Shown here: positions 23,111 to 42,731 of the stretch, in pieces
Layout: every line of letters begins with the position of its first letter
How positions within the stretch are numbered: position 1 is the stretch's first letter
Assembly: GCA_965226065.1 (NCBI GenBank)
Contig: OZ245332.1
Span: 809,651 to 873,650 of the forward strand
Length of the DNA: 64,000 nucleotides
Reading direction: 5' to 3'
DNA from: Spirochaetia bacterium
GTDB lineage: Bacteria > Spirochaetota > Spirochaetia > WTKD01 > G963693115
The notes under the pieces: model-generated
The model's input: the letters and a program-made list of their open reading frames with translations, nothing else
Databases searched by the model: none
What the model was told of the DNA's origin: nothing
Position numbers and translations under genes: made by a program

Positions 23111-23151
23111 TAAAAAAAAGTAGCATAGTCTTACCCACCACCCCACAGCCC

Positions 23152-23306
23152 GTTTTAAGCACTAAAACACCATGTAATACATGACAAAATTGTAATGTAT
23201 TTTAGGTGAGAAAAGGCTTGAAAAAAAGAGTAAATGTACCATTATGTATATAGGTAGAAGTTTGTTTTAATCCTTAAAAAACTTTTACGTAGTACAGGAG
23301 TAATTC
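23152..23306 (+). promoter_or_regulatory. Conserved 5' expression module, copy A (promoter, inverted repeat, RBS) of the variable lipoprotein family
   Basis: The ~155-bp block CACTAAAACACCATGTAATACATGACAAAATTGTAATGTATTTTAGGTGAGAAAAGGCTTGAAAAAAAGAGTAAATGTACCATTATGTATATAGG...ACAGGAGTAATTC-ATG recurs about 5 times in the window. It carries TTGAAA/TATGTA-like hexamers, a 7-bp inverted repeat AATACAT-N14-ATGTATT, and AGGAG 8 nt before the ATG. Confidence 0.55.
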
Positions 23307-23925
23307 ATGACACATAAGAAACCTATATATATATATATATATATATATACTCATTACGATAGCATTAGTAAGCTGTGAACCCGACAAAGTACTATACAAA
23401 GTAATTCCACAAAAAGCAAAAATTATAAAGTCCTCCTTTGAAAAAGAAGCAGTATTCCTGAAATGGGATGTAAAGAAGCTAAAAGAAGAGAAGGTAGCAG
23501 CCTATGGAATATCGTATGGCATCGTGAATGGAAAGACGCTTAAAAAGCGAGAGGTAGTACCAAAGTTCATGGAAGCAGAAGGGTTCACGATACGCAAACT
23601 AGAAGAAGGAATACAGTATTGGTTTAAGGTGCAGGCAATCTACGAAGAATTTTCAGGACCGTGGTCAGAGAAAGCAGAAGGGATAACGGGTAAGCCACAG
23701 CCACCGGTAAATTTTAAGGTAAAGAAAAACACGGAAAAGGCAAAATGGTTTGTCAATGTATCATGGGAAAATAACCCATTGAATGATGAAAGAAAATTAA
23801 ATATAGAAGAATATAGGGTAAAGTGCTGGGACAGCAATAACCCTACAAGTAAATATGAAAAGACATTTTCATCTTTACTGTGGATAATGTACTATTCTGT
23901 ATACTTATCAATCAATAAAACATAA
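23307..23925 (+). CDS. Variable surface lipoprotein, N-terminal module copy A (phase-OFF at the TA tract; truncated after FN3-like domain)
   Basis: After the TA tract the frame ...ILITIALVSCEPDKVLYKVIPQKAKII...EVVPKFMEAEGFTIRKLEEGIQYWFKVQAIYEEFSGPWSEKAEG... is open to 23925. It diverges from the full-length paralogue after KYEKTFS and runs into the upstream region of the next gene. Confidence 0.55.
23324..23349 (+). repeat. (TA)13 tract inside codons 6-14 of lipoprotein copy A
   Basis: Counted directly. ATG at 23307, CCT at 23322-23324, then 26 nt of TA, then CTCATTACGATAGCATTAGTAAGCTGT. The signal peptide frame is +1 relative to the ATG, so this copy is OFF. Confidence 0.9.
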
Positions 23926-23957: not shown

Positions 23958-24734
23958 ATGAAAAAAATATATACAACAATACTAATTATTGCCTTAGCTT
24001 TATTCATCTCATGCGATGAGAAGAAAGCCGAAGATGATATTAAAAAAGCATTTACAAAGATTACCGATAAAGCGGGAGATGTAATAGACGCCGTAGACAA
24101 GACAACACCGAAGCCGAAAGGAAGCGGAACGCTTACGAATACCGAAGGTGAAGAAGCAGAAGACGAAGAGGCAGAAAGTGAAGGAGTTGAAGAGCCAGAA
24201 GACACACTAACACTAATAAAACCCGTACTAAACCGTGAAAATGCACCGTGGAGCAGAAGAATTGTATTTGCGAAAATAGCACAGCATACCTACAGATTAA
24301 AAGAAGAAAAAACAGGAGTAGCACTTACGGAGTATAACAGGGATATAATGCAAGTAACCGCCACGCAGTCCGCACAAAATGTAATCGTAGTCGCCACGTT
24401 TGACGGTAAGACTTCAGAAAGTAACCCTATTGAGTTTACAAGAATACCAGGCAATACCCTAAGCTTTGCACAGGCAAAACGAACAGAAAACGCATATACT
24501 ACCGAAAGCTATACCCAAGCAGCTACTAAAGGTGATACAGTTGCAGGAGATACCAGAAATATACAATATAGCATAAACCCTACAGGTGAAGGTGTTACCA
24601 TCGATAGCAGTAGCGGAGAGGTTACCATTCAAAGAGGCTCGGACCCAGCGGGAGACTATACTATTACCGCAGAACTTCCAGAAGATGAAAAATATACAAG
24701 AGCCACCGCAACATACAGCCTTACCGTTGAGTAG
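23958..24734 (+). CDS. Small surface lipoprotein paralogue (signal peptide, acidic linker, one Ig-like repeat, conserved C-terminal domain)
   Basis: MKKIYTTILIIALALFISC lipobox. Repeat core ATQSAQNVIVVATFDGKTSESNPIEF. C-terminal GDTRNIQYSINPTG...SSSGEVTI...YTITAELP..EKYTRATATYSLTV is shared with the 25645, 40429 and 41292 genes. Confidence 0.75.
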   Translation: MKKIYTTILIIALALFISCDEKKAEDDIKKAFTKITDKAGDVIDAVDKTTPKPKGSGTLTNTEGEEAEDEEAESEGVEEPEDTLTLIKPVLNRENAPWSRRIVFAKIAQHTYRLKEEKTGVALTEYNRDIMQVTATQSAQNVIVVATFDGKTSESNPIEFTRIPGNTLSFAQAKRTENAYTTESYTQAATKGDTVAGDTRNIQYSINPTGEGVTIDSSSGEVTIQRGSDPAGDYTITAELPEDEKYTRATATYSLTVE

Positions 24735-24846: not shown

Positions 24847-25005
24847 GAAAGCAAAAGACGCTAAAACACCATGTAATACATGACAAAATTGTAATGTATT
24901 TTAAGTAGAAAAAAGCTTGAAAAAAAGAGTAAATGTACCATTATGTATATAGGTAGAAGTTTATTTTTATCCTTAGAAAACTTTTACGTAGTACAGGAGT
25001 AATTC
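24847..25005 (+). promoter_or_regulatory. Conserved 5' expression module, copy B
   Basis: Near-identical to 23152-23306. Confidence 0.55.
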
Positions 25006-25622
25006 ATGATATATAAGAAACCTATATATATATATATATATATACCCTAATTACGATAGCATTAGTAAGCTGTGAACCCGACAAAGTACTATACACAGTA
25101 ATTCCACAAAAAGCAAAAATTATAAAGTCCTCCTTTGAAAAAGAAGCAGTATTTCTGAAATGGGATGTAAAGAAGCTAAAAGAAGAGAAAATAGCAGCCT
25201 ATGGAATATCGTATGGCATCGTAAATGGAAAGACACTTAACAAGCGAGAGGTAGTACCAAAGTTCATGGAAGCAGAAGGGTTTACGATACGCAAACTAGA
25301 AGAAGGAATACAGTATTGGTTTAAGGTGCAGGCAATCTACGAAGAATTTTCAGGACCGTGGTCAGAGAAAGCAGAAGGGACAACGGGCAAGCCACAGCCA
25401 CCGGTAAATTTTAAGGTAAAGAAAAACACGCTAGGGACAAAATGGTTTGTAGATGTATCGTGGGAAAATAACCCATTGAATGATGAAAGAAAATTAAATA
25501 TAGAGGAATATAGGGTAAAGTGCTGGGATAGCAATAACCCTACAAGTAAATATGAAAAGACATTTTCATCTTTACTGTGGATAATGTACCATTCTGTCTA
25601 CTTATCAATCGATAAAGTATAA
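25006..25622 (+). CDS. Variable surface lipoprotein, N-terminal module copy B (phase-OFF; truncated)
   Basis: Downstream frame TLITIALVSCEPDKVLYTVIPQKAKII...MEAEGFTIRKLEEGIQYWFKVQ... is open to 25622. It has the same truncation junction as copy A. Confidence 0.55.
25023..25044 (+). repeat. (TA)11 tract in lipoprotein copy B
   Basis: ATG at 25006. 22 nt of TA follow, then CCCTAATTACG, which is 2 nt longer than the CTCATTACG of the other copies. The lipoprotein frame is therefore +2, so this copy is OFF despite the same n as the ON copy. Confidence 0.9.
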
Positions 25623-25644: not shown

Positions 25645-27006
25645 ATGAAGAAACTATATACAACAATACTAATTATTGCCTTAGCTTTGTTCATTTCATG
25701 CGATGAAAAGAAAGCAAAAGATGAAATTACAAAGGCACTTGATAAAGCGGTGGACGCGGTAGATAAGACAACACCGAAACTAACTAAACCCGTACTAAAT
25801 GCTACCCGTGTGAGAGTAGGAACAGCGGCTACATTCCCTAAAGTAGCAGGGTATACCTACACCTTAAAAGAGAAAAAAAGAGGAGTCAGAATAAGCGAAG
25901 GTACAAGTAACACAATGCAAGTCACCGCTACACAAGCAGCTAGCGGTGTTGTTGTAGTTGCGACTAAGGACGGTAATAGCATAGATAGCGAGCCTATAGA
26001 ATTTGTTATTATTGAGTTAACGAAACCCGCAGTAAGTAGCTACCGTGTGAGAACGGTACAAGTGGCTACATTCCCGAAAGTGTTAGGACATACTTATGAA
26101 TTGAAACAAGCTATAAGCGGTGTAAGCCTTGAGGTATCAGATGAGAGCATGGGACGAGTAACCGCTACACAAGCAGCAAGCAATGTAATCATAGTAGCAA
26201 CGCTTGACGGTAACACCGAGGAAAGCGACCCTATAGAATTTGTACTTATTGAGTTAATAAAGCCAGCAGTAAGTAGCAACCGTGTAAAAGTAGGAACACC
26301 GATTATACTTACAAAAGTAGAAGCACATACCTATAAATTGAAAGAAGAGGTAAGCGGCGTAAGTCTTGAGGTATCAGATGAGAGCACGGGAGAACTCACA
26401 GCCACGCAGTCCGCACAAAATGTAATTATAGTAGCCACGCTTGATGGTAATACCGAAGAAAGCGACCCTATAAATTTTATTGAGGTAATAAAACCCGCAG
26501 TAAGCGAAATTTCAGCACCCTGGGATACAGTAATTACATTCCCGAAAGAACCAGAGCATACTTATGAACTGAAAGAAGAAAAAACAGGAGTCACATTAAG
26601 CGAGGCTACCAGTGACACAATGCAAATCACCGCTACACAGTCCGCACAAAATGTAATTATAATTGCAACGGTTGACGGCTTAACTGAAGAAAGCGACCGT
26701 ATTGAGTTTAGAAGAAAGCAGGGTAATGCTTTAAGCTTTGCACAACCAAGACGATCGGAAAAACGAAGAACTACTTTTACGCAAACCGCTAGTAAAAGCG
26801 GAGCAGTTGCAGGAGATACCCGAGACATAACATATAGCGTATATCCTAGTGTTTTCGGTGTTAGTGTTGATAGCAGTAGCGGAGAAGTTGCAGTAAATTT
26901 TATTGCCGACTATAGACGGTATACTATTACCGCACAACTTCCAAGAACCGCAAAGTACGAAAGAAGCACCGCAACATATACACTTGTAGTCCCGAGATCG
27001 AAATAA
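25645..27006 (+). CDS. Surface lipoprotein paralogue with four tandem ~78-aa Ig-like repeats plus conserved C-terminal domain
   Basis: MKKLYTTILIIALALFISC. Repeats KPAVSS.RV..G....TKV..HTY.LK....GVSLEVSDES.G..TATQ.A.NVIIVATLDGNTEESDPIEF occur four times. C-terminal YTITAQLP..AKYERSTATYTLVV. Confidence 0.75.
   Translation: MKKLYTTILIIALALFISCDEKKAKDEITKALDKAVDAVDKTTPKLTKPVLNATRVRVGTAATFPKVAGYTYTLKEKKRGVRISEGTSNTMQVTATQAASGVVVVATKDGNSIDSEPIEFVIIELTKPAVSSYRVRTVQVATFPKVLGHTYELKQAISGVSLEVSDESMGRVTATQAASNVIIVATLDGNTEESDPIEFVLIELIKPAVSSNRVKVGTPIILTKVEAHTYKLKEEVSGVSLEVSDESTGELTATQSAQNVIIVATLDGNTEESDPINFIEVIKPAVSEISAPWDTVITFPKEPEHTYELKEEKTGVTLSEATSDTMQITATQSAQNVIIIATVDGLTEESDRIEFRRKQGNALSFAQPRRSEKRRTTFTQTASKSGAVAGDTRDITYSVYPSVFGVSVDSSSGEVAVNFIADYRRYTITAQLPRTAKYERSTATYTLVVPRSK
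25780..26725 (+). repeat. Intragenic tandem repeats (~234 bp x4) encoding Ig-like modules
   Basis: Seen as repeated peptide blocks in the 453-aa product and as repeated antisense ORF fragments. Confidence 0.7.
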
Positions 27007-27140: not shown

Positions 27141-27760
27141 TTGAAACACGCAGAGGAACGCGAAGAATATGAATTACGCGTGAAAGCAAGCACAAACACG
27201 GGAGATATTGTGAAGCCGACATTCAGACCTAGTAAAAGTGAGCCATGGGGAACGGATATAAGCTTTGAAAAGCTTGAGGGCTATACGTATGAATTGAAAG
27301 ACGACAAAGGTGGAGCAGTGAGCTTAGACACAAGCAGTGACCCTGCGAGAATAAGTGCGACAGAGTCTGTGAGCGCAGTAGTGATAGAAGTGAGACGTTC
27401 GGGATATAGTGGGAAAGTAGAAAGCGACCCGATTGAGTTTACGAAAAAAGCGGGCAACGGCTTGAGCTTTGTGAGCTCTTCAGAAGAGAAAAGAGTTAGC
27501 ACTGCTTCCGCAACATTTACGCAGAGCGCTACTAACGATAGAGCAGTTACAGGAGATGACAGATCCGTAGTGTACAGCATAAGCCCTACGGGACAAGGTG
27601 CCACGATAAACCCTAGTAGCGGTGAGGTGACAATAACACCAGCGGCCGCAATCAATGGCTTTACCGTTACCGCAACATTACCCGCAAACGCAAAGTATAC
27701 CGCTTCTAACACGGCAACATATACGCTTAATGTAGTGGCTCCACCGGGAACAAGAAAGGT
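27141..27760 (+). pseudogene. Promoterless mosaic fragment of the variable lipoprotein family (internal part of the 718-aa paralogue joined to a C-terminal-domain variant)
   Basis: Begins abruptly at AEEREEYELRVKASTNTGDIVKPTFRPSKSEPWGTDISFEKLEGYTYELKD... This block is nearly identical over ~100 aa to the middle of the minus-strand gene at 34593-36934. It then switches to ...GLSFVSS..ATFTQSATNDRAVTGDDRSVVYSISPTG..SSGEVTIT...YTLNV. It has no signal peptide or module upstream, only the family junction sequence at 27081-27130. Confidence 0.6.
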
Positions 27761-28418
27761 ACGCGTATTGGTATCGTTTAATTATCTTAACTTAATAAAA
27801 GGTAACAAAGGACAAATCTTGTGGATAAAAACAAGTATTATAAATGCGCATGCAGGGTACAGGGTCAGGGTATTCAAAATTATTCAATAATTACAGTGTC
27901 ATATACATGTATGATTATTTATTGTTATTAAAAACTTTATGCTTTAGCTTCGGCTTATAGCAGCTCCGGTATCTAGTCGTGCCGGCAGTATGGAATGCAT
28001 GTAATTTGCAAAATTATTTGCTTTGATTGTCTTTACTTACCCCTTATGAATTTTATAAGATGTGTATTGTATGTCCTAGTATTTTACCACGGTATTATAC
28101 ATGGTGTTTTTTATAGAAAAGGAGCAAAAGTATCGTTGCAAGTGAAAGAGAAATAATACTTACAAAGTTGAGACCTTTTCAATTTCTAACGGCGGAAGAG
28201 GAATTTTGATTTGAACCAATACTTTAACAGATACTATATCTTGAGTAGCACCATGTAAATATTTACTAATAAAATTAGTTAGAATTAACTTTAAATATTT
28301 TAAGGATAATAATTCAATCATTGTATTCAATTGTACTTTTCATCAGACGCTATTAAAGTGTGCATACAATATAATAAAATTACCTTATTTCTAAATAATA
28401 CAAGAGCGGAGTTATTAT

Positions 28419-29714
28419 ATGCTTGATATTAAATACATCGTAAAGAATGCATCTCGTTTTAGTACATCTGCACAGCAGAGAAATGTACGCGACTTCGTAC
28501 CAGAGCTCGTAGGCTTGTACGAAAAGAGTCTCATCATACAACAAGAATTAGAAACACTCTCTCAAGAACGAAACCATGTAGCAAAAGAAATTTCACAAAA
28601 AAAGGACGATGGACGCGCACGCCTTGTAGCACGCGGCAAAGAACTGAAAATGCAAATATCCGAGCATGACGCAGAACTGAAAAAGCTACAAAACGATATT
28701 CAATCGCTTGCCTTACAAATTCCAAACATACACCATCCGTCTGCACCACTTGGAAAAGAAGAAAAAGATAATCTCGTCATAAAAACGCATGGCACTGCAC
28801 GACAATTTTCTTTCACACCTAAAAGCCATATAGATTTGTGTACTGAACTCAATATTGTAGATTTTACCAACGCGACAAAAGTATCAGGACCGAAATTTTA
28901 CTACTTGAAAAATGAAGCGGTGTTATTAGAACTCGCACTTATACGCTTTGGAATTGACATACTACGCGAACATGGCTTTACAATTTTTGAAACACCTGAC
29001 ATTGCGCGCACTTCTATTGTCGAAAGTATCGGGTTTCTTCCGAGAGGAAATGAAAGTAACATTTACAACATTGAAGATGAAGGTACATCTCTTATCGGTA
29101 CGGCAGAAATAACCCTCGGTGGCTATTATGCAGATAGCATTATACCGTTGGAGTTACTGCCTATAAAAATGGCAGGAATTTCGCATTGCTTTCGCCGAGA
29201 ATCAGGTGCAGCAGGACAATATTCAAAAGGACTGTATCGTGTACATCAGTTTACGAAACTGGAAATGTTTGTTTTTTGCCATCCTGATAAATCAGAAACA
29301 ATGCATGAGGAATTATTGACGATAGAAGAACAACTGTATCAAAAGTTAGAAATCCCATACAGAATCGTAGATACCTGCACGGGAGATTTAGGAGCATCCG
29401 CCTACAGAAAATTTGACATAGAGGCGTGGATGCCAGGACGCGGAAAAACCGGCGAGTACGGCGAAATTACAAGTGTATCAAATTGTACCGATTATCAATC
29501 GCATAGGCTTAGTATACGCACACAAGACGAAGATTCCTCACACAATAAAATAAGGATATTTCCTCACACGTTAAACGGCACGGCACTTGCCATACCTCGA
29601 ACGCTTATTGCGATTGTAGAAAATTTTCAAAACGAGGATGGAAGTATACGTATACCCGATGTACTTATTCCTTATTGTGGTTTTTCATCTGTGAAGAAAA
29701 GCCACAATTCGTAA
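28419..29714 (+). CDS. serS: Seryl-tRNA synthetase
   Basis: 431 aa. N-terminal coiled-coil arm plus class II core (motif 2 region FRRESGAAG, motif 3 region). Confidence 0.9.
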   Translation: MLDIKYIVKNASRFSTSAQQRNVRDFVPELVGLYEKSLIIQQELETLSQERNHVAKEISQKKDDGRARLVARGKELKMQISEHDAELKKLQNDIQSLALQIPNIHHPSAPLGKEEKDNLVIKTHGTARQFSFTPKSHIDLCTELNIVDFTNATKVSGPKFYYLKNEAVLLELALIRFGIDILREHGFTIFETPDIARTSIVESIGFLPRGNESNIYNIEDEGTSLIGTAEITLGGYYADSIIPLELLPIKMAGISHCFRRESGAAGQYSKGLYRVHQFTKLEMFVFCHPDKSETMHEELLTIEEQLYQKLEIPYRIVDTCTGDLGASAYRKFDIEAWMPGRGKTGEYGEITSVSNCTDYQSHRLSIRTQDEDSSHNKIRIFPHTLNGTALAIPRTLIAIVENFQNEDGSIRIPDVLIPYCGFSSVKKSHNS

Positions 29715-29728
29715 TATTTCACAAACCG

Positions 29729-30835
29729 ATGCACGAATTTATAGCAGAGATAGGCACTTCGCATCTCGGATCTTTTGAAAAAGCAAAATGCATGATAGAT
29801 GCAGCGCGTAAGGCAGGTGCAACAACTGCAAAGTTTCAATGGGTTATAGCCGATGAAATAATTTCAAAGCATGCGGGTATTATTACCCTACCTAATGGAG
29901 ATACAAACATCTACGAGTATTTTTTGTCAGTGGAAAAAGATAAAGATTTTTACGCAAAACTTAAATCTTACACAGAGAAATGCGGCTTAGAATTTTTATG
30001 CAGTGTCTTTGGGCTAAAATCTCTGCATCTATTGCTACAACTAAACCCAAAGAGAATAAAAATAGCCTCACCCGAAATAAACCATAGAGAACTCTTACAG
30101 TCCCTTGCACAACATAAAGTCGCAGTAGTGCTCTCAAGTGGTGTATCAACTTTGATAGATTTATTACGAGCGGTCAATATTCTACGTGCAGGCAAAATAG
30201 AAGATATTGCTATATTACGCTGCGTTACAGAATATCCTGCTTCACCTTATTCGTACGCACTACAATTACTGGAAAAATACCAAACACTCTTTCAATGCCA
30301 ATGCGGAATATCTGACCACACGCAAGAAACTTCAATACTTCCTACTATCGCAGCAGCATATGGAAGCACGATGGTAGAAAAACATTTTTTTCTCCCTAAT
30401 GAACACGACGAGGTAACACGCTGTCCTGATGATCCTATTGCATTATCACCTCATGCATTTTCTGAAATGGTAAAATCTACTACAAACATCGCAACAATAT
30501 ACAAAACAAAAGGCCATCGCGCTGCAAAAACTGCGGTTAAAAAATGCTATGGTGAGAAGACCGTTCACGCAGTTATAGGTACTAGACAATCTTCAAAAAA
30601 ACAAAAACATAGCGCTGCATTGTTACCTCATTACTTTACTACGCGAAGAAGTCTTTTTGCGCGTACAAACATAGCAAAAGGGAATATACTCACACCACAA
30701 AATTGTATATTGCAGCGTAGTGAACACAACACAAGGCCGGGTATACCCACTGAAGCATATACCACAATTTTGGGTAAAAAAGTACATTCGAAAATAGCAA
30801 AAGGCATGCCAATAACATTTGAACATTTCCTGTAG
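29729..30835 (+). CDS. NeuB-family nonulosonic-acid (sialic/pseudaminic/legionaminic acid) synthase-like protein with SAF domain
   Basis: N-terminus FIAEIGTSHLGSFEKAKCMIDAARKAGATTAKFQ matches the NeuB TIM-barrel signature (IAEIG.NH.G....A..MI..A...GA...KFQ). The C-terminal ~60 aa are SAF/antifreeze-like. Start taken at MHEFIAE. Confidence 0.65.
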   Translation: MHEFIAEIGTSHLGSFEKAKCMIDAARKAGATTAKFQWVIADEIISKHAGIITLPNGDTNIYEYFLSVEKDKDFYAKLKSYTEKCGLEFLCSVFGLKSLHLLLQLNPKRIKIASPEINHRELLQSLAQHKVAVVLSSGVSTLIDLLRAVNILRAGKIEDIAILRCVTEYPASPYSYALQLLEKYQTLFQCQCGISDHTQETSILPTIAAAYGSTMVEKHFFLPNEHDEVTRCPDDPIALSPHAFSEMVKSTTNIATIYKTKGHRAAKTAVKKCYGEKTVHAVIGTRQSSKKQKHSAALLPHYFTTRRSLFARTNIAKGNILTPQNCILQRSEHNTRPGIPTEAYTTILGKKVHSKIAKGMPITFEHFL

Positions 30836-30917
30836 GAGTAATTGAGAAAAAGCATTGAGACTATGCAGAAAACTCTAAATCTCATCAAGGTTATTTTCAA
30901 TATATTTGATTATATTT

Positions 30918-31626
30918 AGAAGAAGGAGAACCACTAAAAGAAGGTATCAGAGAAGTAGAAAGAGCAGGAAGGTTTTTTCACTATTTCGCTGCAGAAGCAT
31001 TGAGAAACATCGGCGATTTTGTAGACTCAGTTCGTACAGAAGTACAAATAGAAGTATTTAGAGTGCCGGTAGGTACCGTACTTGTTATCACGCCATGGAA
31101 TTTTCCTGTTGCACTCCCTGCATGGAAAATAGCTCCTGCACTTGCCTTTGGTAACAGCGTTATCTTAAAACCTGCTTCCACTACTCCAGCTAGTGCCTGT
31201 GCCTTGGCAAAAATAATTCACGAAGCAGGAGTGCCTGAAGCTGTGTTTCAAATGCTACTCAGCGACTCTGTACTCGGAGAAACATTGGTAAAAAATCCCG
31301 CATTTGATGCAGTAAGCTTTAGAGGATCCTTTGCCGTAGGACGCAATATTGCAAGACTCTCAGGTGAGCTACTACGCCACTTCCAATTAGAAATGGGCAG
31401 CAAAAACGCACTCATCATCCTTGATGATGCCGACATTGATATTGCAGTAGCCTGTGCAATCAATGGTGCCTTTGGTGGTACAGGGCAAAAATGCACTGCA
31501 TCCTCTCGCATCATTGTAAGCGAAGGAATATACAAAACCTTTCTCGAAAAATTCACAGAAGCGGCTTCACAATTTAGGCTATTCGGGAGGTATGTTAGGA
31601 CTAAGCCTATATCCTTTTCATCTTAA
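30918..31626 (+). pseudogene. Aldehyde dehydrogenase family gene remnant (central ~230 aa only)
   Basis: Open frame ...[23 protein letters not shown]...[32 protein letters not shown]...ELGGKNA-like LEMGSKNALII...GQKCTASSR. It lacks the first ~100 aa and the C-terminal catalytic Cys domain end. Confidence 0.6.
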
Positions 31627-31766: not shown

Positions 31767-32997
31767 GTGTTTTGGGCAGCAGGAGAACCTATCGCACATT
31801 TTCTCAATCCTCCTCCACTTTTTGGTGTAGAAGGCAAAACGGCAGAAGCTGTTGCCCCCTGCATTAGCACAAAGTTTTATGCACTGGGGATTTTTAGCAT
31901 GGGCTATTGCAGGAACTCTTACTGCCATCGTCATGATGTACTACTGTTACAACAAAAAGTTACCTTTCAAACCACGGACACTTCTCTATCCCATATTTAA
32001 AGAAAAAATAATGACAGGACCCTTAAGTATACTTGTCAATGCAAGTTGTATTATTGCAGTGGTAGCAGGTACCGTAGGTCCAATTGGATTTTTAGGATTA
32101 CAGGTAGGCTATGGCTTGAATAAAATGCTCAATATTCCTAATAATGCTATAACACAATCTGCCATTATATTATTACTCATGATAATTTATGTAAGTTCAG
32201 CCGTCTCAGGAGTTTCAAAAGGTATACAATTACTTAGTAGGATCAATGTTATTATTGCAATTGGATTGACGATTTTCATTGTCTTCTTTGGTAAGGTAGA
32301 ATTTATCGTAGATTCATATTTACAATCCTTCGGATTATATATTTCTGAATTTCTTTCTATGTCGCTTTATAGAGGTGACAGTACATGGTTAAGTTGGTGG
32401 ACAGTTTTTTTCTGGGGATGGTTTTTAGGATACGGACCTTTGATGGCAATTTTTATAGCGCGTATATCAAAAGGTAGAACTATACGAAATGTTATTATTA
32501 CAACTTCTATAATTGGTCCATTGATTATGACATTTTGGTTCACTATTGTAGGCGGAAGTGGTATATTCTTTGAACTTAACAATCCCAATTCTATTGCAGG
32601 AGCATTTGAAGGATTTAATCTTCCTGCGGCACTAATTGCCATAACCACGCAACTTCCATTTGGTACATTACTTACCTATATTTTTATTATTCTCACATTC
32701 ATTTTTGTTGCTACTACTGGCAACTCCATGACATTGAGCATACCCATATGCATGACAGGAGATGAGAATCTTAGCACACTTACTCAAGTATTTTGGGGCG
32801 TTTTTATGTGACTCATGGCAATTGTTCTTGTGCTGATGGGAGCAGGCAGCATATCTGCTTTGCAATCGTTTATTGTTATTACCGCGATACCTGTTTCTTT
32901 GATACTTCTACCTTCGCTATTGCAGAATAATATTTACACCCTATCTTTACTTAATTTCAAAGTAATCAAAATACCAAATACTCGCGGTGATACATAG
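31767..32997 (+). pseudogene. BCCT-family (betaine/carnitine/choline) transporter gene disrupted by frameshifts
   Basis: Three consecutive ORFs in different frames (31767-32000, 31852-32811, 32815-32997) together carry BCCT sequence. This includes the family signature WTVFFWGWFLGYGPLMAIFIARISKGRTIR. Confidence 0.65.
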
Positions 32998-34592: not shown

Positions 34593-36934
34593 TTAATTGT
34601 ATTTTCTTATGCGATAACAAAGACCCTTTTTCCAATTCCCGTCTCTATGTGTCCCAGTTGCACTGCAGTGATATTCATGCAGTTTTACTGTTATTTTATA
34701 AGATGCTGTACTTTCCGTATACTTCTCATTTTGTTCTTTTTTCGCAGTAATTGTTTCTGTTTTTGATCCTCTAAAAATTATAAGTCGATCCATATCAATT
34801 CTAGAAGATGATGCTGTGTATATAATTCTTCTTTTGTCGCCGGGGATATCTCTGCTTACACGCACCTTTTGAAGCCTTGCTCGTCCAAAAGCGTTTCTGA
34901 TTTTCCCAAACTTTGGCACATTAACTGTTAGCATAAAAGGTCCTGTTTTTGTAAAGAAAAGCGTATCGCCCGTTTGCCTCGTAAACGTTATCGGGACACT
35001 GTCTATGACAGCTTCTTCGTATTTCGAATCTCCAGGTAGTATCGCTTGTACAATTACATTTTCAGCAAACTGATTAGCGGTAATTTTTCCATTGCCTAGT
35101 GTCACTCCAGTATGACGGTTTTTCAATTTATACCTATGCAGCGGTGCAGGGGTAAATGTAATAGCTGTTCCCCACGGCACACTCGTTTTACTGAATATAG
35201 GCTTTGTCGCAGGTCTCGTCTGCTTCGTAAACTCAATCGGGACACTGTCTATGACAGCTTCTTCGTATTTCGAATCTCCAGGTAGTATCGCTTGTACAAT
35301 TATATTTTTAGCAAACTGATTAGCGGTAATTTTTCCATTGCCTAGTGTCACTCCAGTATGACGGTTTTTCAATTTATACCTATGCAACGGTGCAGGGGTA
35401 AATGTAATAGCTGTTCCCCACGGCACACTCGTTCTACTGAATATAGGCTTTGTCGCAGGTCTCGTCTGCTTCGTAAACTCAATCGGGTCGCTTTCTACTT
35501 TCCCACTATATCCCGCACGTCTCACTTCTATCACTACTGCGCTCACAGACTCTGTCGCACTTATTCTCGCAGGGTCACTGCTTGTGTCTAAGCTCACTAC
35601 TCCGCCTTTGCTGTCTTTCAATTCATACGTATAGCCCTCAAGCTTTTCAAAGCTTATATCCGTTCCCCATGGCTCACTTTTACTAGGTCTGAATGTCGGC
35701 TTCACAATATCTCCCGTGTTTGTGCTTGCTTTCACGCGTAATTCATATTCTTCGCGTTCCTCTGCGTATTTATCATCCGCTGCCTTCCTCGCTGTTATCG
35801 TAAATGTATTGCCTACCGCTGCTGCCTCAATGCTCACTTCACCACTACTGCCGTCTATTCTCGCTCCACTGCTACTCGGATTTATGCTGTATCGCACGGG
35901 TGTGTCTTCAGGGTCAGTTTCTGTAATTACATGCGTATATTTGTTTTCATTTGTGTTAAACATGAAATCATGACTTGCACTTTCAAACTTAAATCTATCT
36001 CCCGCTTGCCTCGTAAATGCTATTTCTGCACTTTCTTCTTTTCCCTCATATTCTGTGTGTGTCACTTCTATCACTACTGCACTCACAGACTCTGTCGCAC
36101 TTATTCTCGCAGGGTTATTGCTTATGTCTAAGCTCACTACTCCGCCTTTGCTGTCTTTCAATCTATACTTATGACCTTCAAGCATTCCAAAGGTAATGTC
36201 TGTTCCCCACTGCACACTCGTTTGACTGAATGCTGGCGCTTCTATCGCCTTTGCTGTGGTGCTTCTCCTCTCTACCGTGCTTCTTACTCCTTTGTCTGTC
36301 TCTATGTACAATTCACATATATACTCTTTTCCCGCTTTTAGCGCTAACTCATTCATCTTCATAGAAACTTCTTCTTGTGACGCTTCTTTCTCTTTAGCTA
36401 CCCCTCCTGTCTCATTACACTTCACTTTGTAGCTGTAACGTATCTCTAAGTCTTCGTTCACCTCGTTCTTTTTCCAGCGTAACTCAAGACTTCGTTTGCC
36501 ATCTTTTGTGGGCTGCTTTATTATCTTAAAATCTGTAGGTGGTTCTGGTTGCCCCGTTGTCCCTTCTGCTTTCTCTGACCACGGTCCTGAAAATTCTTCG
36601 TAGATTGCCTGCACCTTAAACCAATACTGTATTCCTTCTTCTAGTTTGCGTATCGTAAACCCTTCTGCTTCCATGAACTTAGGGACTACCTCTCGTTTGT
36701 TAAGAGTCTTGCCGTCTACTATGCCATATGATATTCCATAGGCTGCCACCTTCTCTTCTTTTAGCTTCTTTACATCCCATTTCAGAAATACTGCTTCTTT
36801 TTCAAAGGATGCTTTTATAATTTTTGCTTTTTGTGGAATTACTGTGTATAGTACTTTGTCGGGTTCACAGCTTACTAATGCTATCGTAATGAGTATATAT
36901 ATATATATATATATATAGGTTTCTTATGTGTCAT
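34593..36934 (-). CDS. Variable surface lipoprotein copy C (~780 aa if in frame; phase-OFF at TA tract)
   Basis: ATG at 36934 (MTHKKP...), (TA)12 at 36894-36917, then the signal peptide frame is shifted (offset 41 nt, not divisible by 3). The downstream frame is open to 34593. It carries the FN3-like N-module, Ig-like domains and an internal 83-aa duplication. Confidence 0.6.
34985..35482 (-). repeat. Intragenic ~249-bp direct duplication in copy C
   Basis: TKQTRPATKPIFS(R/K)TSVPWGTAITFTPAPLHRYKLKNRHTGVTLGNGKITANQFA.N.IVQAILPGDSKYEEAVIDSVPI.F occurs twice. The DNA is near-identical. Confidence 0.75.
36894..36917 (-). repeat. (TA)12 tract in copy C
   Basis: Counted on the plus strand between GAG (36891-36893) and GG (36918-36919). 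Confidence 0.9.
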
Positions 36935-37088
36935 AAATTACTCTTGTACTGTGTAAAAGTTTTCTAAGAATTAAAACAAACTTTTACCTACATATATAAT
37001 GGTACATTTACTCTTTTTTTCAAGCCTTTTTTTACCTAAAATACATTACAATTTTGTCATGTATTACATGGTGTTTTAGCGTCTTTAG
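36935..37088 (-). promoter_or_regulatory. Conserved 5' expression module, copy C
   Basis: Reverse complement matches the copy A/B module. Confidence 0.55.
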
Positions 37089-37248: not shown

Positions 37249-40158
37249 TTACCATGCCCATTTCGGCTTATTTGATTTCTGCATTGCGGTTGCACTCATG
37301 AATATGTATTGGGCGTTTCTTCCGCTTTTGTCTACCCAAGCGGTTAAGTCTTGATTGAATGAAGTAGCAAAGTAGAACATATAGCTCATGGCTGTTACAC
37401 TTGATACATCCCAATTATTAAGCGACTGATTGAATGAAGTAGCCTCTCTGAACATATGGCTCATTTCTGTTACACTCGATACAGTCCAATTATTAAGCGG
37501 CTTATTGAATGAGGTAGCATTTTGAAACATACTCCACATTTCTGTTACACTCGATACAGTCCAATTATTAAGCGGCTGATTGAATGAAGCAGCATTGTCA
37601 AACATATGGCTCATGGTTGCTACACTCGATACATCCCAATTATTAAGCGGCTGATTGAATGAAGTAGCATTGTAAAACATACCGCTCATGTCTGTTACGC
37701 TTGAGGTGTTCCATTTGCTAATGTCACCGTTAAAAGTAGCATTGTTATAAAAAAGCTCGCTCATATCGGTTATGTCTGAAGTATCGATGTAGTTTAGATC
37801 TACTTCGTTGCCGTGTGCTCTTATGGCTTGCTTAATTTCGTATATCAATTCTGCTTTAGTTGGGGTTTTGAATTTTGCCACTGTTAGCTGGTATGATGCT
37901 CTTTGTGCTTCGTATTTTGCACTTTGTGCCTTTCTTGCTGTTATTGTAAATGTATTGCCTATCGCTGCTACTGTAAAGTCTACTTTACCGCTTACGCTAT
38001 CTATGCTCGCAACTGCTCCCGTGGGACTGATGCTATATTCGATGTCCCTAGTATCACCGCTTACGCTTCTATCATTAGTAGCAACCTGTGTATAAGTATT
38101 TCCACCTGTTGCATACATGGTATTCTTATTCACGGTTGCAAAGCGGATCGTACTACCTGCCTGCCTTCTAAACTCAATAGGATCACTTTCTACGCTTCCC
38201 GTATAACCTCTACGCTTTGCAACAATAATAATATTTGCTGCTGGCTGTGTTGCTGTTATTTGCCCGGTACTCTTATCAAACGCTACCCCGGTTATAGCTT
38301 GTTTCAATTCATAGCTATGATCCACTACTTTTGTAAGTCTGATAGGTGTACCCCACCTCTCGCTTCTTTTGCTTACCGCTGGTTTTGTAATATCTCCTGT
38401 GTTTGTATTTGCTTGCACTCTTAGCTGGTATGATGCTCTTTGTGCTTCGTATTTTGCACTCTGTGCCTTTCTTGCTGTTATCGTAAATGTTGTCCCTATC
38501 GCTGCTAGTGTAAAGTCTACTTTACCGCTTCCCGTATCGATGCTTGCACCTACTCCCGTGGGACTGATGCTATACGATACGACTCCCGTATCTCCTGCTA
38601 CTACTCTATCGTTAGTAACCGTCTGTGTATGAGTATTTCCCTTGCCGTATTGTACCGCTACATCGATGTTTGCAAAGCGGAGCGTACTACCTGCTTGTCT
38701 TGTAAACTCAATAGGATCGCTTTCTACGCTTCCCGTATAACCTCTACGCTTTGCCACAATAATAATCCTTGCTGCTGGCTGTGTTGCTGTTATTTGCCCG
38801 GTACTCTTATCAAACACTACCCCGGTTATAGCTTGTTTCAATTCATAGCTATGATCCGCTACTTTTGTAAGTCTGATAGGTGTACCCCAGCTCTCGCTTC
38901 TTTTGCTTACCGCTGGTTTTGTAATATCTCCTGTGTTTGTATTCGCTTGCACTCTTAGCTGGTATGATGCTCTTTGTGCTTCGTATTTTGCACTTTGTGC
39001 CTTTCTTGCTGTTATCGTAAATGTCTTGCCGACTGCTCCTAGCGTAAAGTCTACTTTACCGCTTCCCGTATCTACGCTTGTACCTGCTCCCGTGGGACTG
39101 ATGCTATACGATACGACTCCGGTATCTCCTGCTACTACTTTATCGTTAGTAACAGTTTGTGTATGAGTATTTCCGCTTTTTCCATATTCTATCGGTACAT
39201 CAATGTTTACAAAGCGAAGCGTATTGCCTGCTTGTCTCGTAAACTCAATAAGTTCACTTTCTGCACTCCCTGTATAGCCTGTGCGTTTTGCAACAATAAT
39301 AATCCCTGTTACCGGCTGTGTTGCTGTTACTTGCCCGGTGCTCTCATCAAACACTACCCCGCTTATAGCTTGTTTCAATGCGTAGCTATGATCTACTACT
39401 TTTGTAAGTGTAATCGGTGTTCCCCACCTTTCGCTTCTTTTACTTACCGCTGGTTTCTCTATATCATCAAACGCAAGTACTCCGCTTTGCTTTACTTCGC
39501 TTAGCGTTCCTTTATCTGTTTTTACCTGCACACTACAAACATAGTTCACCTTCCCGCTTGTCTCCAGTACTCCTTTTGTAGATACCTTTGTAGGTGCTGA
39601 AAATGTCTTTTCATATTTACTTGTAGGGTTATTGCTATCCCAGCACTTTACCCTATATTCTTCTATATTTAATTTTCTTTCATCATTCAATGGGTTATTT
39701 TCCCACGATACATCTACAAACCATTTTGTCCCTAGCGTGTTTTTATCTACCTTAAAGTCTACCGGTGGCTCTGGCTTACCCGTTGTTCCTTCTGCTTTCT
39801 CAGACCAGGGTCCCGCAAACTCTTCATAGATTGCCTGCACCTTAAACCAATATTGAGTCCCTTCTTTTAGCTTGCGTATTGTAAAGCCTTCTTTTTCCAT
39901 GAACTTAGGCACTACTTCTCGTTTGTTAAGAGTCTTGCCGTCTACTATGCCATATGATATTCCATAGGCTGCCACCTTCTCCTCTTTTAGCTTCTTTACA
40001 TTCCATTTTAGAAATACTGCTTCTTTCTTAAAGGAGGACTCTATAATTTTCGCTTTTTGTGGAATTACTGTATATAGTACTTTGTCGGGTTCACAGCTTA
40101 CTAATGCTATCGTAATGAGTATATATATATATATATATATAGGCTTTTTATGTCTCAT
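37249..40158 (-). CDS. Variable surface lipoprotein copy D, full length and in frame (969 aa): FN3-like N-module, 3x178-aa Ig-like repeats, C-terminal DUF285/BspA-like repeat array
   Basis: ATG at 40158. MRHKKPIYIYIYILITIALVSCEPD... with lipobox LVSC. (TA)11 is in frame. The ORF is continuous to 37249. Confidence 0.85.
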   Translation of the reverse strand: MRHKKPIYIYIYILITIALVSCEPDKVLYTVIPQKAKIIESSFKKEAVFLKWNVKKLKEEKVAAYGISYGIVDGKTLNKREVVPKFMEKEGFTIRKLKEGTQYWFKVQAIYEEFAGPWSEKAEGTTGKPEPPVDFKVDKNTLGTKWFVDVSWENNPLNDERKLNIEEYRVKCWDSNNPTSKYEKTFSAPTKVSTKGVLETSGKVNYVCSVQVKTDKGTLSEVKQSGVLAFDDIEKPAVSKRSERWGTPITLTKVVDHSYALKQAISGVVFDESTGQVTATQPVTGIIIVAKRTGYTGSAESELIEFTRQAGNTLRFVNIDVPIEYGKSGNTHTQTVTNDKVVAGDTGVVSYSISPTGAGTSVDTGSGKVDFTLGAVGKTFTITARKAQSAKYEAQRASYQLRVQANTNTGDITKPAVSKRSESWGTPIRLTKVADHSYELKQAITGVVFDKSTGQITATQPAARIIIVAKRRGYTGSVESDPIEFTRQAGSTLRFANIDVAVQYGKGNTHTQTVTNDRVVAGDTGVVSYSISPTGVGASIDTGSGKVDFTLAAIGTTFTITARKAQSAKYEAQRASYQLRVQANTNTGDITKPAVSKRSERWGTPIRLTKVVDHSYELKQAITGVAFDKSTGQITATQPAANIIIVAKRRGYTGSVESDPIEFRRQAGSTIRFATVNKNTMYATGGNTYTQVATNDRSVSGDTRDIEYSISPTGAVASIDSVSGKVDFTVAAIGNTFTITARKAQSAKYEAQRASYQLTVAKFKTPTKAELIYEIKQAIRAHGNEVDLNYIDTSDITDMSELFYNNATFNGDISKWNTSSVTDMSGMFYNATSFNQPLNNWDVSSVATMSHMFDNAASFNQPLNNWTVSSVTEMWSMFQNATSFNKPLNNWTVSSVTEMSHMFREATSFNQSLNNWDVSSVTAMSYMFYFATSFNQDLTAWVDKSGRNAQYIFMSATAMQKSNKPKWAW
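37280..37770 (-). repeat. C-terminal array of ~6 x 27-aa repeats (FNQPLNNWDVSSVT.MS.MF.NATS), DUF285 / BspA-like LRR type
   Basis: Repeated peptide DISKWNTSSVTDMSGMFYNATSFNQPLNNWDVSSVATMSHMFDNAASFNQPLNNWTVSSVTEMWSMFQNATSFNKPLNNW... Period is 81 bp. Confidence 0.7.
37860..39470 (-). repeat. Three near-identical ~534-bp intragenic tandem repeats (178 aa each)
   Basis: Protein blocks KPAVSKRSE.WGTPI.LTKV.DHSY.LKQAI.GV.FD.STGQ.TATQP...IIIVAKR.GYTGS.ES.PIEF.RQAG.T.RF......TITARKAQSAKYEAQRASYQL.VQANTNTGDIT occur three times. The antisense ORFs 37808-38095, 38369-38632 and 38903-39166 are almost identical. Confidence 0.85.
40120..40141 (-). repeat. (TA)11 tract in copy D (in-frame, ON)
   Basis: ATG first base at 40158. 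First base of CTC (Leu) at 40119. Offset is 39 nt, so in frame. Confidence 0.9.
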
Positions 40159-40307
40159 GCATTACTCCTGTACTATGTAAAAGTTTTCTAAGGATTAAAA
40201 CAAACTTTTACCTATGTACATAATGGTACATTTATTCTTTTTTTCAAGCCTTTTTTCACCTAAAATACATTACAATTTTGTCATGTATTACATGGTGTTT
40301 TAGCGTC
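40159..40307 (-). promoter_or_regulatory. Conserved 5' expression module, copy D
   Basis: Reverse complement matches the module, including AGGAG 8 nt before the ATG. Confidence 0.55.
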
Positions 40308-40428
40308 TTTTTCTTTCCTTTCCTCTTTAGCCAAGTTTTTTAAGTCTTTTGCGTTCTTTCTTTTCAAGTCGTTTATGCATTTTGTAATCTGCCTCTAAGC
40401 CTTTCATGTCTTCGCTTTTCATATTCCG

Positions 40429-41291: not shown

Positions 41292-42092
41292 TTAACTGCA
41301 TGGCCTGTCTCCCGCAAGGTGATGACACACCGCTAGCGTATAGGTTGCGGTAGCTCTTCTATATTTTTCGGTTTGTGGAAGTTCTGCCGTTACGGTAAAC
41401 TTTACATTAGCTGCGCTTTGTGTAAGTGTTACTTCTCCGCTAGCGGAGTCAATTGTTCCACCTCTTCCCGTAGGGTTTATGCTATATGTTACACCTCGGT
41501 TGTCTCCTCTTACCGATGTAGTATGTACTCTAATCGCTTGCGTGTATTTTGATTCTCCGCTTCTTTTTAGAGTTATTCCATTGGCATTGTTAGCAAAGCT
41601 CAAGGTATTACCCTGTATTCTCGTAAACTCAATAGGGTTACTTTCAATGCTCTCACCGTTAAGCGTTGCGACTATGATTACATTTTGTGCGGACTGCGTG
41701 GCGGTGATTTGCATTCTGTTACCGGTAACCTCTGTAAGTTCTACTCCTGTTTTTTCTTCTTTCAATTCATAGGTATGCTCCGCTATTTTCGCAAATATAA
41801 TTATTACGTTCCATGGTGCACTCTCACGGCTTAGTGCGGGCTTTATTAGTGCTTGCGGTGATGTGTCTTCTGGTTCTTCAACTCCTTCACCTCCTGCGTC
41901 TTCACCTTCGGCATTTTTAGGCGTACCGCTTCCTTGTGGCTTTGGGGTTGCTTTGTCCACTACATCTGCCGCTTTATCGGTAATCTCTGTAAATGCTTTT
42001 TTTATATCGTCTTCGGCTTTAGCTTTCTGCTCATCGCATGAGACAAACAAAGCCAATGCAATAATTAGTATTGCTGTGTATATTTTATTCAT
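41292..42092 (-). CDS. Small surface lipoprotein paralogue (266 aa)
   Basis: MNKIYTAILIIALALFVSC. Same architecture (ATQSAQNVIIVATLNGESIESNPIEF ... YRRATATYTLAV). Confidence 0.75.
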   Translation of the reverse strand: MNKIYTAILIIALALFVSCDEQKAKAEDDIKKAFTEITDKAADVVDKATPKPQGSGTPKNAEGEDAGGEGVEEPEDTSPQALIKPALSRESAPWNVIIIFAKIAEHTYELKEEKTGVELTEVTGNRMQITATQSAQNVIIVATLNGESIESNPIEFTRIQGNTLSFANNANGITLKRSGESKYTQAIRVHTTSVRGDNRGVTYSINPTGRGGTIDSASGEVTLTQSAANVKFTVTAELPQTEKYRRATATYTLAVCHHLAGDRPCS

Positions 42093-42120: not shown

Positions 42121-42500
42121 TGTTGTTCCTTCTATTTTCTCCGACCAGGGTCCTGAAAATTCTTCGTAGATTGCCTGCACCTTAAACCAATACTGTATTC
42201 CTTCTTCTAGTTTGCGTATCGTGAACCCTTCTGCTTCCATGAACTTTGGCACTACCTCTCGCTTTTTAAGCGTCTTTCCATTCACGATGCCATACGATAT
42301 TCCATAGGCTGCTATTTTCTCTTCTTTTAGCTTCTTTACATCCCATTTCAGGAATACTGCTTCTTTTTCAAAGGAGGACTTTATAATTTTTGCTTTTTGT
42401 GGAATTACTTTGTATAGTACTTTGTCGGGTTCACAGCTTACTAATGCTATCGTAATGAGTATATATATATATATATATATATAGGCTTTTTATGTATCAT
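42121..42500 (-). pseudogene. Truncated N-terminal module copy E (phase-OFF, ~125 codons) fused directly to the upstream region of the 41292-42092 lipoprotein gene
   Basis: ATG at 42500 (MIHKKP...), (TA)12 at 42460-42483 (offset 41, so OFF). The FN3-like sequence runs down to ...EKAEGTTG at ~42125. The conserved upstream element of the small lipoprotein gene follows immediately. Confidence 0.55.
42460..42483 (-). repeat. (TA)12 tract in copy E
   Basis: Counted on the plus strand between GAG (42457-42459) and GG (42484-42485). Confidence 0.9.
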
Positions 42501-42628
42501 GAATTACTCCTGTACCACGTAAAAGTTTTGTAAGGATTAAAAAAAACTTCTACCTATATACATAATGGTACATTTACTCTTTTTTTCAAGTGTTTTTTCA
42601 CCTAAAACACATTACAATTTTGTCATTG
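42501..42628 (-). promoter_or_regulatory. Conserved 5' expression module, copy E (distal end diverges)
   Basis: Matches the module up to ...TTTTGTCAT and then diverges. Confidence 0.45.
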
Positions 42629-42731
42629 TATACACCTTCTGTATTGTTTGATGAATAAATCTAGGATTACTTCAGTGGCTATCTTAATAGAACCATACTT
42701 GAAAACATGACTGAAGTTATAATAAAGATAC

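Follow-up and report, generated by a model that had tools for sequence, protein, structure and literature searches.

Organization of the gene D locus

Gene D, the subject of this analysis, lies in a 64,000-nt stretch of a Spirochaetia bacterium genome (assembly GCA_965226065.1, contig OZ245332.1, positions 809,651 to 873,650), hereafter the window. The middle part of its predicted protein consists of three long tandem repeat units (U1 to U3), each made up of a domain A and a domain B. We compared the gene with its paralogues and with the corresponding region of a second strain (L003). From the N-terminus, gene D encodes a signal peptide with a lipobox, two fn3 domains, the three A-B units and a C-terminal PARCEL/DUF285 domain. 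A protein identical to the gene D product is present in the public collection (entry P0001). The parts of the gene are as follows:

37249–40158, minus strand: gene D, a 969-aa predicted lipoprotein (open reading frame (ORF) list and translation).
40093–40158, minus strand: signal peptide with lipobox L-V-S-C (Cys22) (translation).
39787–40017, minus strand: fn3 domain 1, aa 48–124 (Pfam PF00041, E=6.2e-9).
39469–39771, minus strand: second beta-sandwich, fn3-like, aa ~130–230 (full-length AlphaFold2 model, strands 133–228, predicted local distance difference test (pLDDT) ~70–78).
38920–39456, minus strand: unit U1, aa 235–413, 537 bp (domain A 39241–39456; domain B, type a, 38950–39240; linker QANTNTGDIT).
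38386–38919, minus strand: unit U2, aa 414–591, 534 bp (domain A 38704–38919; domain B, type a, 38416–38703; linker).
37879–38385, minus strand: unit U3, aa 592–760 (domain A 38170–38385; domain B, type b, 37879–38169; without linker).
37279–37809, minus strand: PARCEL/DUF285 domain of 25-residue repeats (PF03382, TIGR02167; AlphaFold2 pLDDT 80–90).

The gene D product is predicted, solely from its lipobox motif, to be a lipoprotein. Its second beta-sandwich is called fn3-like on the basis of the paralogue gene C, in which Pfam detects two fn3 stretches. The 10-residue linker QANTNTGDIT closes U1 and U2 and is missing from U3. DUF285 (PF03382) matches aa ~786–886 and beyond with E=2.4e-63 (211.6 bits vs a cut-off of 25), and the NCBIfam model of the PARCEL repeat, TIGR02167, matches in four stretches with 61.1 bits (cut-off 30). 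It is this C-terminal domain, and not the 534-bp units, that belongs to the PARCEL/DUF285 family. Tandem Repeats Finder (TRF) detected a 75-bp period in the PARCEL region, at 37352–37698. The domain is presumed to be a distal, ligand-binding tip.

Similarity and age of the three tandem units

Three copies this similar across ~530 bp are far beyond chance, and the three in-frame tandem repeats that the original prediction placed at 37860–39470 are real: the coordinates fit and the motifs quoted for them are correct. The array is absent from the TRF output because the longest period allowed (500) is shorter than a unit; it was located by a repeat search and our own alignment instead.

The repeats had been described as almost identical, differing at a handful of positions. 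We found that they share 81–89% of their DNA and 72–85% of their protein sequence, with 61–97 base differences per pair. U1 and U2 are 88.6% identical in DNA and 85% in protein (26 aa differences, longest exact run 50 nt), U2 and U3 86.5% and 82% (31 aa differences, 47 nt), and U1 and U3 80.9% and 72% (47 aa differences, 61 nt). Synonymous divergence (dS, Nei-Gojobori) between the units is 0.25–0.43, with a ratio of nonsynonymous to synonymous divergence (dN/dS) of 0.2–0.5; the exception is domain A of U2 vs U3, with a dS of 0.04. As the DNA of the two strains differs by only ~2%, the triplication must be old.

The same follows from the comparison with paralogues. Among 79 well-scoring units, mean identity is 0.80 within genes, 0.825 between genes of one genome for units at matching relative positions, and 0.78–0.80 for other between-gene pairs. 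The nearest relative of every gene D unit sits in another paralogue; that of domain A of U2 is unit 2 of P0004 (97%) and that of domain B of U3 is unit 3 of P0009 (89%). Since the units of D are no closer to each other than to those of paralogues, the three-unit layout is old and was inherited from the family. The units thus read as old, diverged copies and not as a recently homogenised array.

ORFs on the opposite strand over the units had likewise been called near-identical. They lie in the same register, are of unequal length (173, 109 and 115 aa), share 59–81% identity across ~100 aa and are rich in Cys, Tyr, Phe and Ile. As genes they were ruled out; they are the opposite-strand shadow of the repeated DNA.

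Mosaic structure of the middle unit

Identity between U2 and U3 is patchy: 95–98% over the first ~240 nt, ~60–65% from nt ~240 to 400 and ~90% over the last ~100 nt. Before nt 250, 32 of the 39 informative sites of U2 agree with U3, and after it 42 of 51 agree with U1. The maximum chi-square of 37 was reached by none of 5000 permutations. By this test U2 is a significant chimera, U3-like in its 5' part and U1-like in its 3' part. Such a pattern is expected if a crossover out of register, where A meets B, extended a two-unit gene, [A1B1][A3B3], to three units; conversion would leave the same one. We take the chimera as the trace of an unequal crossover or a conversion long ago, a recombination mechanism that we infer from the pattern of sites.

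Long exact runs occur elsewhere in the family. In the gene that occupies the position of D in the second strain (L003 4903–7131), the two A domains have the same protein sequence and 96.8% identical DNA that includes 159 nt without a mismatch, and units 3 and 4 of P0010 share an exact run of 173 nt. Exact runs of 159–173 nt in family genes are the product of very recent intragenic duplication or conversion.

Predicted fold and domain identity of the units

The AlphaFold2 model of U2, computed with nine unit sequences from the window as input, is all-beta with two lobes (mean pLDDT 92.6). In a Foldseek search against the PDB its top matches were cadherin EC1-2 pairs and intimin D0-D1 (E~1e-6), with template modelling scores of only ~0.4 because the orientation of the two domains differs. 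From the model and these matches, each 178-aa unit is predicted to consist of two Ig/cadherin-like beta-sandwich domains, A (72 aa) and B (~97 aa). The earlier description of the repeat as an Ig-like module therefore agrees with the predicted beta-sandwich fold but not with the number of domains, which is predicted to be two per unit and not one. The full-length model shows the sandwich at aa 130–230, six more sandwiches, a helix at 768–782 and the PARCEL region. Residues 1–126 are of low confidence in it, because few aligned sequences cover them.

No Pfam family matched the units in hmmscan searches, in which fn3 and DUF285 were detected in D. Big_2 (PF02368) was not found in D at E≤0.1, its gathering score not being reached, and neither Rib nor RibLong was found by hmmscan; P0183, which is distantly related to domain A, matches RibLong in another part of its sequence. 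A phmmer search of 1.84 billion representative proteins returned only 42 clusters that match A or B at E≤1e-3, and the distant matches of domain B fall within the Big_2 arrays of P0182, P0185, P0188 and P0196. Domain B is a remote Big_2 relative that lies below the Pfam thresholds, and domain A is without a convincing relative. When PDB sequences were searched with profiles of A and B, all matches were insignificant or spurious (e.g. cadherin-23, E=0.012, and the designed protein Ika8). A and B represent an undescribed, lineage-restricted pair of Ig-like domains and are candidates for domain databases.

A family of related lipoprotein genes restricted to one species

Thirty-six relatives of D were identified, on two contigs of spirochaete metagenome-assembled genomes (MAGs; 1.85 and 1.80 Mb) and on one 10-kb contig of the same assembly. 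Member architectures were assigned with hidden Markov models of A and B. The D-type subfamily, with the order lipobox, fn3, fn3, (A-B)n, PARCEL, has at least 28 members, counted as 27 retrieved proteins and the second-strain gene read from L003. Most members have three units (n=3). A single unit was found in P0024, two in P0020, P0022 and the second-strain gene, and four in P0002, P0003, P0005, P0006 and P0010. Other subfamilies carry runs of A only, e.g. AAAAAB. Domain B exists in two cassette forms, a and b, which follow each other as aab in D; the orders seen in the family are aab, aaa, abb, aba, aaab, aabb, abab, aa, ab and b. Each 1.8-Mb genome carries at least 16 genes for such lipoproteins of predicted stalk-and-tip design, with different module numbers (1–4) and a/b cassette orders.

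At the family level, these genes are restricted to this spirochaete species. A scan of the GTDB representative genomes with D gave no match, and a conserved 23-mer of the family had none in JGI metagenome contigs. Among named organisms, the ProRS adjoining D is most like those of Alkalispirochaeta and Spirochaeta (~60–62% identity). Its nearest GTDB representative is a Spirochaetia MAG (L004, CBDAKK010000001.1; 81% identity), which puts the organism among uncultured Spirochaetia. No A or B domains lie within 10 kb of ProRS in L004 or in the other 79 spirochaete loci that were fetched, so the ProRS-adjacent family cluster is specific to this species. One pair of family proteins, P0027 (822 aa) and P0041 (973 aa), was considered as length alleles and rejected, the shorter being a 99%-identical copy that ends early on a contig of 1.88x coverage.

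The ProRS-adjacent gene in the second strain

The second strain has a 99% identical copy of ProRS on the 1.80-Mb contig. The segment with gene C and ProRS (window 37105–32924) is 97.9% identical between the window and L003, and further flanking genes are 96–99% identical. The slot of D is occupied in the second strain by an in-frame gene of 742 aa in which the A-B units number two and the PARCEL domain is shorter, so that the unit count at the ProRS-adjacent slot is three in this genome and two in the other. The two genes are 84–90% identical in DNA, and in a segment by segment comparison the second-strain gene was no nearer to D than were three other paralogues of that strain; it is therefore not a simple allele of D. 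Synteny is broken upstream of the second-strain gene. The difference between three and two units is best read from these sequences as gene replacement or scrambling, and not as deletion of a single unit.

No orthologue of D at ≥90% identity was found in the only other strain. Among the retrieved proteins, none of the second genome matched a member from the first above ~85% aa identity; best family matches within a genome are at 78–86%.

Gene C itself (34593–36934, minus strand) contains a 246-bp tandem repeat at 34971–35487 (2.1 copies, 96% matches) that is made of A-only modules. This repeat is far more similar than the units of D, yet its copy number is equal in both strains.

TA tracts and a conserved upstream element

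Gene D begins with ATG AGA CAT AAA AAG CCT; next comes a 22-nt TA tract, and after it the lipobox LVSC. In a pattern search the window was found to include five TA tracts of 22–26 nt, where none is expected. Their positions, and that of a conserved upstream element, are:

40120–40141, minus strand: TA tract of 22 nt, in frame in D, encoding IYIYIYI in the signal peptide.
36894–36917 (gene C), 42460–42483 and 23324–23349: out-of-frame TA tracts of 24–26 nt.
25023–25044: fifth TA tract, 22 nt, with a stop codon after the tract.
40224–40310, minus strand: conserved 87-nt element upstream of D, 98% identical to 37000–37086 upstream of gene C (repeat family D4).

All five tracts lie in signal-peptide codons at the starts of family genes (M-x-H/Y-K-K-P-(IY)n...), and only D, of the five genes, has a long open frame. 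Between in-frame family proteins, the IY runs vary by 6 nt, which is three TA units. The tracts have the features of an Opa-like contingency locus, being placed in the 5' coding region, differing in length among copies and setting the reading frame. From these sequences, the whole lipoprotein family looks like one under slipped-strand ON/OFF switching. A literature search found nothing specific on a spirochaete lipoprotein family switched by TA tracts. The original prediction had called D the expressed paralogue; its TA tract is indeed in frame, but this means no more than an open frame, which several other paralogues of this genome, outside the window, also have.

The 87-nt element is probably a shared promoter region of the family. 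Hexamers TTGAAA-16-CATTAT were found at 40247–40220, at the same position in both copies of the element; promoter-like sites were not above chance in number in a consensus scan, and only this conserved position is suggestive.

Other loci of the window

Truncated 5' copies of family genes, with the upstream element, the TA tract and the start of fn3, are present at 23140–23873 (plus strand), 24861–25570 (plus strand) and 42122–42634 (minus strand). Each lies directly upstream of a small lipoprotein gene (23958–24734, 25645–27006 and 41292–42092, respectively) with its own signal peptide and an A...B architecture. The truncated copies may be promoter suppliers or recombination debris.

The ORF at 27141–27890 starts in the middle of a domain, and its syntenic counterpart, L003 18145–19788, is an intact family gene of 547 aa. 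Window 27144–30916 corresponds to L003 15120–18885 at ~99% identity, and the first ~300 nt of the gene at this locus also match the second-strain copy of gene C at 98%. The ORF is probably a rearrangement breakpoint within a family gene.

Fragments of aldehyde dehydrogenase and BCCT transporter genes were found at 31000–31626 and 31852–32811, and in L003 (11585–14843) these genes are likewise split into several short ORFs. Pseudogenes common to both strains suggest that the ~1.8-Mb genome of this spirochaete, which is possibly host-associated, is decaying. The window gave no match in Rfam or tRNA scans.

Origin and variation of the repeat array

We consider it probable that gene D encodes a lipid-anchored stalk-and-tip protein with old, diverged modules that are subject to occasional recombination, TA slippage being the faster route to variation. 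The protein would be anchored by its N-terminus at what is presumably the cell surface, with a string of beta-sandwiches (two fn3 and three 178-aa A+B modules) as the stalk and PARCEL/DUF285 at its far end; these functions of stalk and tip are proposed from the sequence and the model. Occasional homologous recombination, out of register and in register, or gene conversion would reshuffle the module number (1–4) and the B type (a or b), both inside genes and between paralogues, and the chimeric middle unit of D would be one footprint of it. Length thus does change by whole modules, but over times as long as those in which paralogues and strains diverge. A population would probably reach a new stalk length or antigenic type more quickly by swapping which paralogue is in frame, by slippage of the putative TA switch in the signal-peptide codons.

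Module number does change over evolutionary time. Since the units are in frame and are whole folded modules, their gain or loss would keep the protein intact. The earlier claim that the protein changes length by whole modules is thus in keeping with the in-frame, folded units, with the one to four units of family members and with the three vs two units of the ProRS-adjacent slot; it is weakened by the non-allelic nature of the second-strain gene. Rapid length switching at D is no more than plausible.

Several points weigh against the favoured reading of an anchored stalk with old, occasionally recombining modules. The comparison includes only two strains, and the list of paralogues may be incomplete, as the protein search did not return the gene in the second-strain slot. 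The evidence on unit number comes from assemblies and not from reads or multiple isolates, and hence yields no rate of gain or loss; the TA-tract lengths derive from a ~8x long-read consensus, in which errors are possible. Part of the chimera signal of U2 is contributed by the a/b dimorphism of the B cassette. The dN/dS of 0.2–0.5 between units reflects mainly purifying selection and does not speak positively for antigenic diversification. That the protein is expressed, lipidated, exposed at the surface and able to bind a ligand is predicted from sequence.

The original prediction saw in D a present-day hot spot of unequal recombination that flips between 2-, 3- and 4-unit alleles and would give a ladder of protein sizes. 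The chimeric U2 is what an unequal crossover would leave, the units are whole in-frame modules, and family members have one to four of them, with three vs two at the slot in the two strains. The exact runs of 47–61 nt and the ~240-nt tract of U2 and U3 at 95–98% identity exceed the usual minimum for RecA-type recombination, as generally known from E. coli. Adjacent units, at 82–85% protein identity, also pass the ≥80% screen for variable-length periscope proteins (PMC8201768). We nevertheless regard such a hot spot as unlikely. Its premise of near-identity fails: the units are 11–19% diverged with a dS of 0.25–0.43, far older than the ~2% strain split, and similarity within the gene shows no excess. 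The two-unit gene of the second strain is not an allele of D, and the 96%-identical tandem repeat of gene C is unchanged in copy number between the strains, while in the periscope paper the largest variation belongs to the most identical repeats (PMC8201768).

Another source of the mosaic could be a silent library, in which out-of-frame and truncated paralogues donate segments by conversion to in-frame genes such as D, the tandem units serving as recipient sites, as likened to TprK of Treponema pallidum or VlsE of Borrelia. The a and b cassettes are shuffled across positions, every D unit has its best match in another paralogue (for domain A, as high as 97%), the window contains many copies that are truncated or out of frame, and the family is only 75–85% identical between strains vs 99% for the housekeeping gene. 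That D is a recipient of this kind seems quite unlikely to us, given that neither flanking conserved short repeats nor a dedicated expression site was identified, that several paralogues are in frame simultaneously, and that the variable cassette is dimorphic and not hypervariable, with dN/dS <1. This low ratio (0.2–0.5) would suit a fixed structural stalk, whose units are spacers under purifying selection and whose differences in copy number are old and neutral, as would the exactly three units of most paralogues and the slightly greater likeness of the first and last units of different genes (0.825 vs 0.797). However, members with one, two and four units, varying cassette orders, recent conversion tracts and a syntenic slot that differs between ~98%-identical strains make a fixed stalk improbable. 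We give hardly any credence to an assembly artefact, in which repeat number or unit sequences would have been mis-assembled from a low-coverage long-read metagenome. Contig names suggest that the assemblies are long-read metagenomes; a related contig has 8.02x coverage in its name, and on a 1.88x contig of that sample another family gene is present as a truncated copy. But the units differ at 61–97 positions, so that reads anchor uniquely, the ORF is intact across 2.9 kb, and the same architecture recurs in dozens of paralogues and in two assemblies.

The favoured account, of an anchored stalk-and-tip protein with old modules, might be part of something broader. We tentatively raise, as a possibility in which we have limited confidence, that a spirochaete with a reduced genome and probably a host varies its surface by a combinatorial system, where A-B modules are the working parts, each gene is TA-switched independently and modules are continually re-assorted by recombination inside genes and across them. 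If this were true, stalk length and antigenic type would be chosen from a library of paralogues and renewed in it. Should the re-assortment be real, this uncultured spirochaete would vary the length and the epitopes of its surface proteins by a compact system.

Comparison with known systems

Periscope proteins (SasG, Rib, Sgo_0707/SHIRT and CdrA) have a stalk of tandem folded domains whose unit number is variable (Whelan et al. 2021, PMC8201768), and were screened for by repeats of >50 aa with ≥80% identity (PMC8201768). Gene D is like them in that long (>50 aa) folded domains are arranged in tandem, vary in number and would set the distance of a terminal binding domain. It passes the repeat screen marginally, with units of 178–179 aa and adjacent pairs at 85% and 82% (U1 and U3, 72%). 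Unlike in periscope proteins, repeat identity in D is at the low end, variation in number is seen among paralogues and at a non-allelic slot and not among orthologues of ≥90% identity, and each repeat consists of two domains, A and B, that belong to no Pfam family, while a library of paralogues stores the diversity in length. D is predicted to be anchored by a lipid at its N-terminus and to have its tip at the C-terminus, whereas LPXTG proteins are oriented the other way round. The lipobox LVSC, followed by modelled sandwiches like beads on a string and then by PARCEL, is consistent with an anchored, projecting stalk. In its working principle, D is closest to the periscope proteins, with a tip of the PARCEL/DUF285 family.

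The PARCEL/DUF285 surface lipoproteins of mollicutes combine a lipoprotein signal with 25-residue repeats and form shuffled, strain-variable multigene families (Roske et al. 2010, PMC2996958). D shares with them the lipoprotein signal, the tandem 25-residue PARCEL repeats and membership in a shuffled multigene family, and differs in the fn3 and A-B arrays between anchor and PARCEL and in its spirochaete host. D does not reach the cut-off of the Mbov_0838 family (NF045896; 133 vs 500 bits).

Vlp of Mycoplasma hyorhinis and Vsa of M. pulmonis are lipoprotein families that combine ON/OFF switching with in-frame, size-varying tandem repeats. Their repeats are ~12–19 aa long, unstructured and near-identical, and they are switched by promoter poly-A tracts or by site-specific inversion; D, in contrast, has a coding TA tract and folded modules of 178 aa. 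In the Opa proteins of Neisseria, a family of surface beta-barrels, each gene is switched by a CTCTT pentamer in the region coding for the signal peptide. D is like Opa in its TA tract only, as Opa is without tandem Ig-like modules.

Surface proteins with Big_2 arrays include the Lig lipoproteins of Leptospira, intimin and invasin, and BspA of Tannerella, which joins leucine-rich repeats (LRRs) to Big_2. D resembles them as a string of Ig-like domains with an LRR-type binding domain, in the relatives of B that lie within Big_2 arrays and in the fold match to intimin D0-D1. It differs in that A and B lie below Pfam thresholds and in that Big_2 neighbours are usually much more diverged than the units of D.

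As it stands, the repeat of D is an ordinary feature of repetitive surface adhesins. If the combinatorial system outlined above were real, three known tricks would be combined in it, namely ON/OFF switching by a coding repeat, modular stalks like those of periscope proteins and the shuffling of paralogues, and the periscope principle would be run by a gene family instead of one expandable gene. Nothing in D is categorically new; the combination at the level of the family is a variant on known systems.

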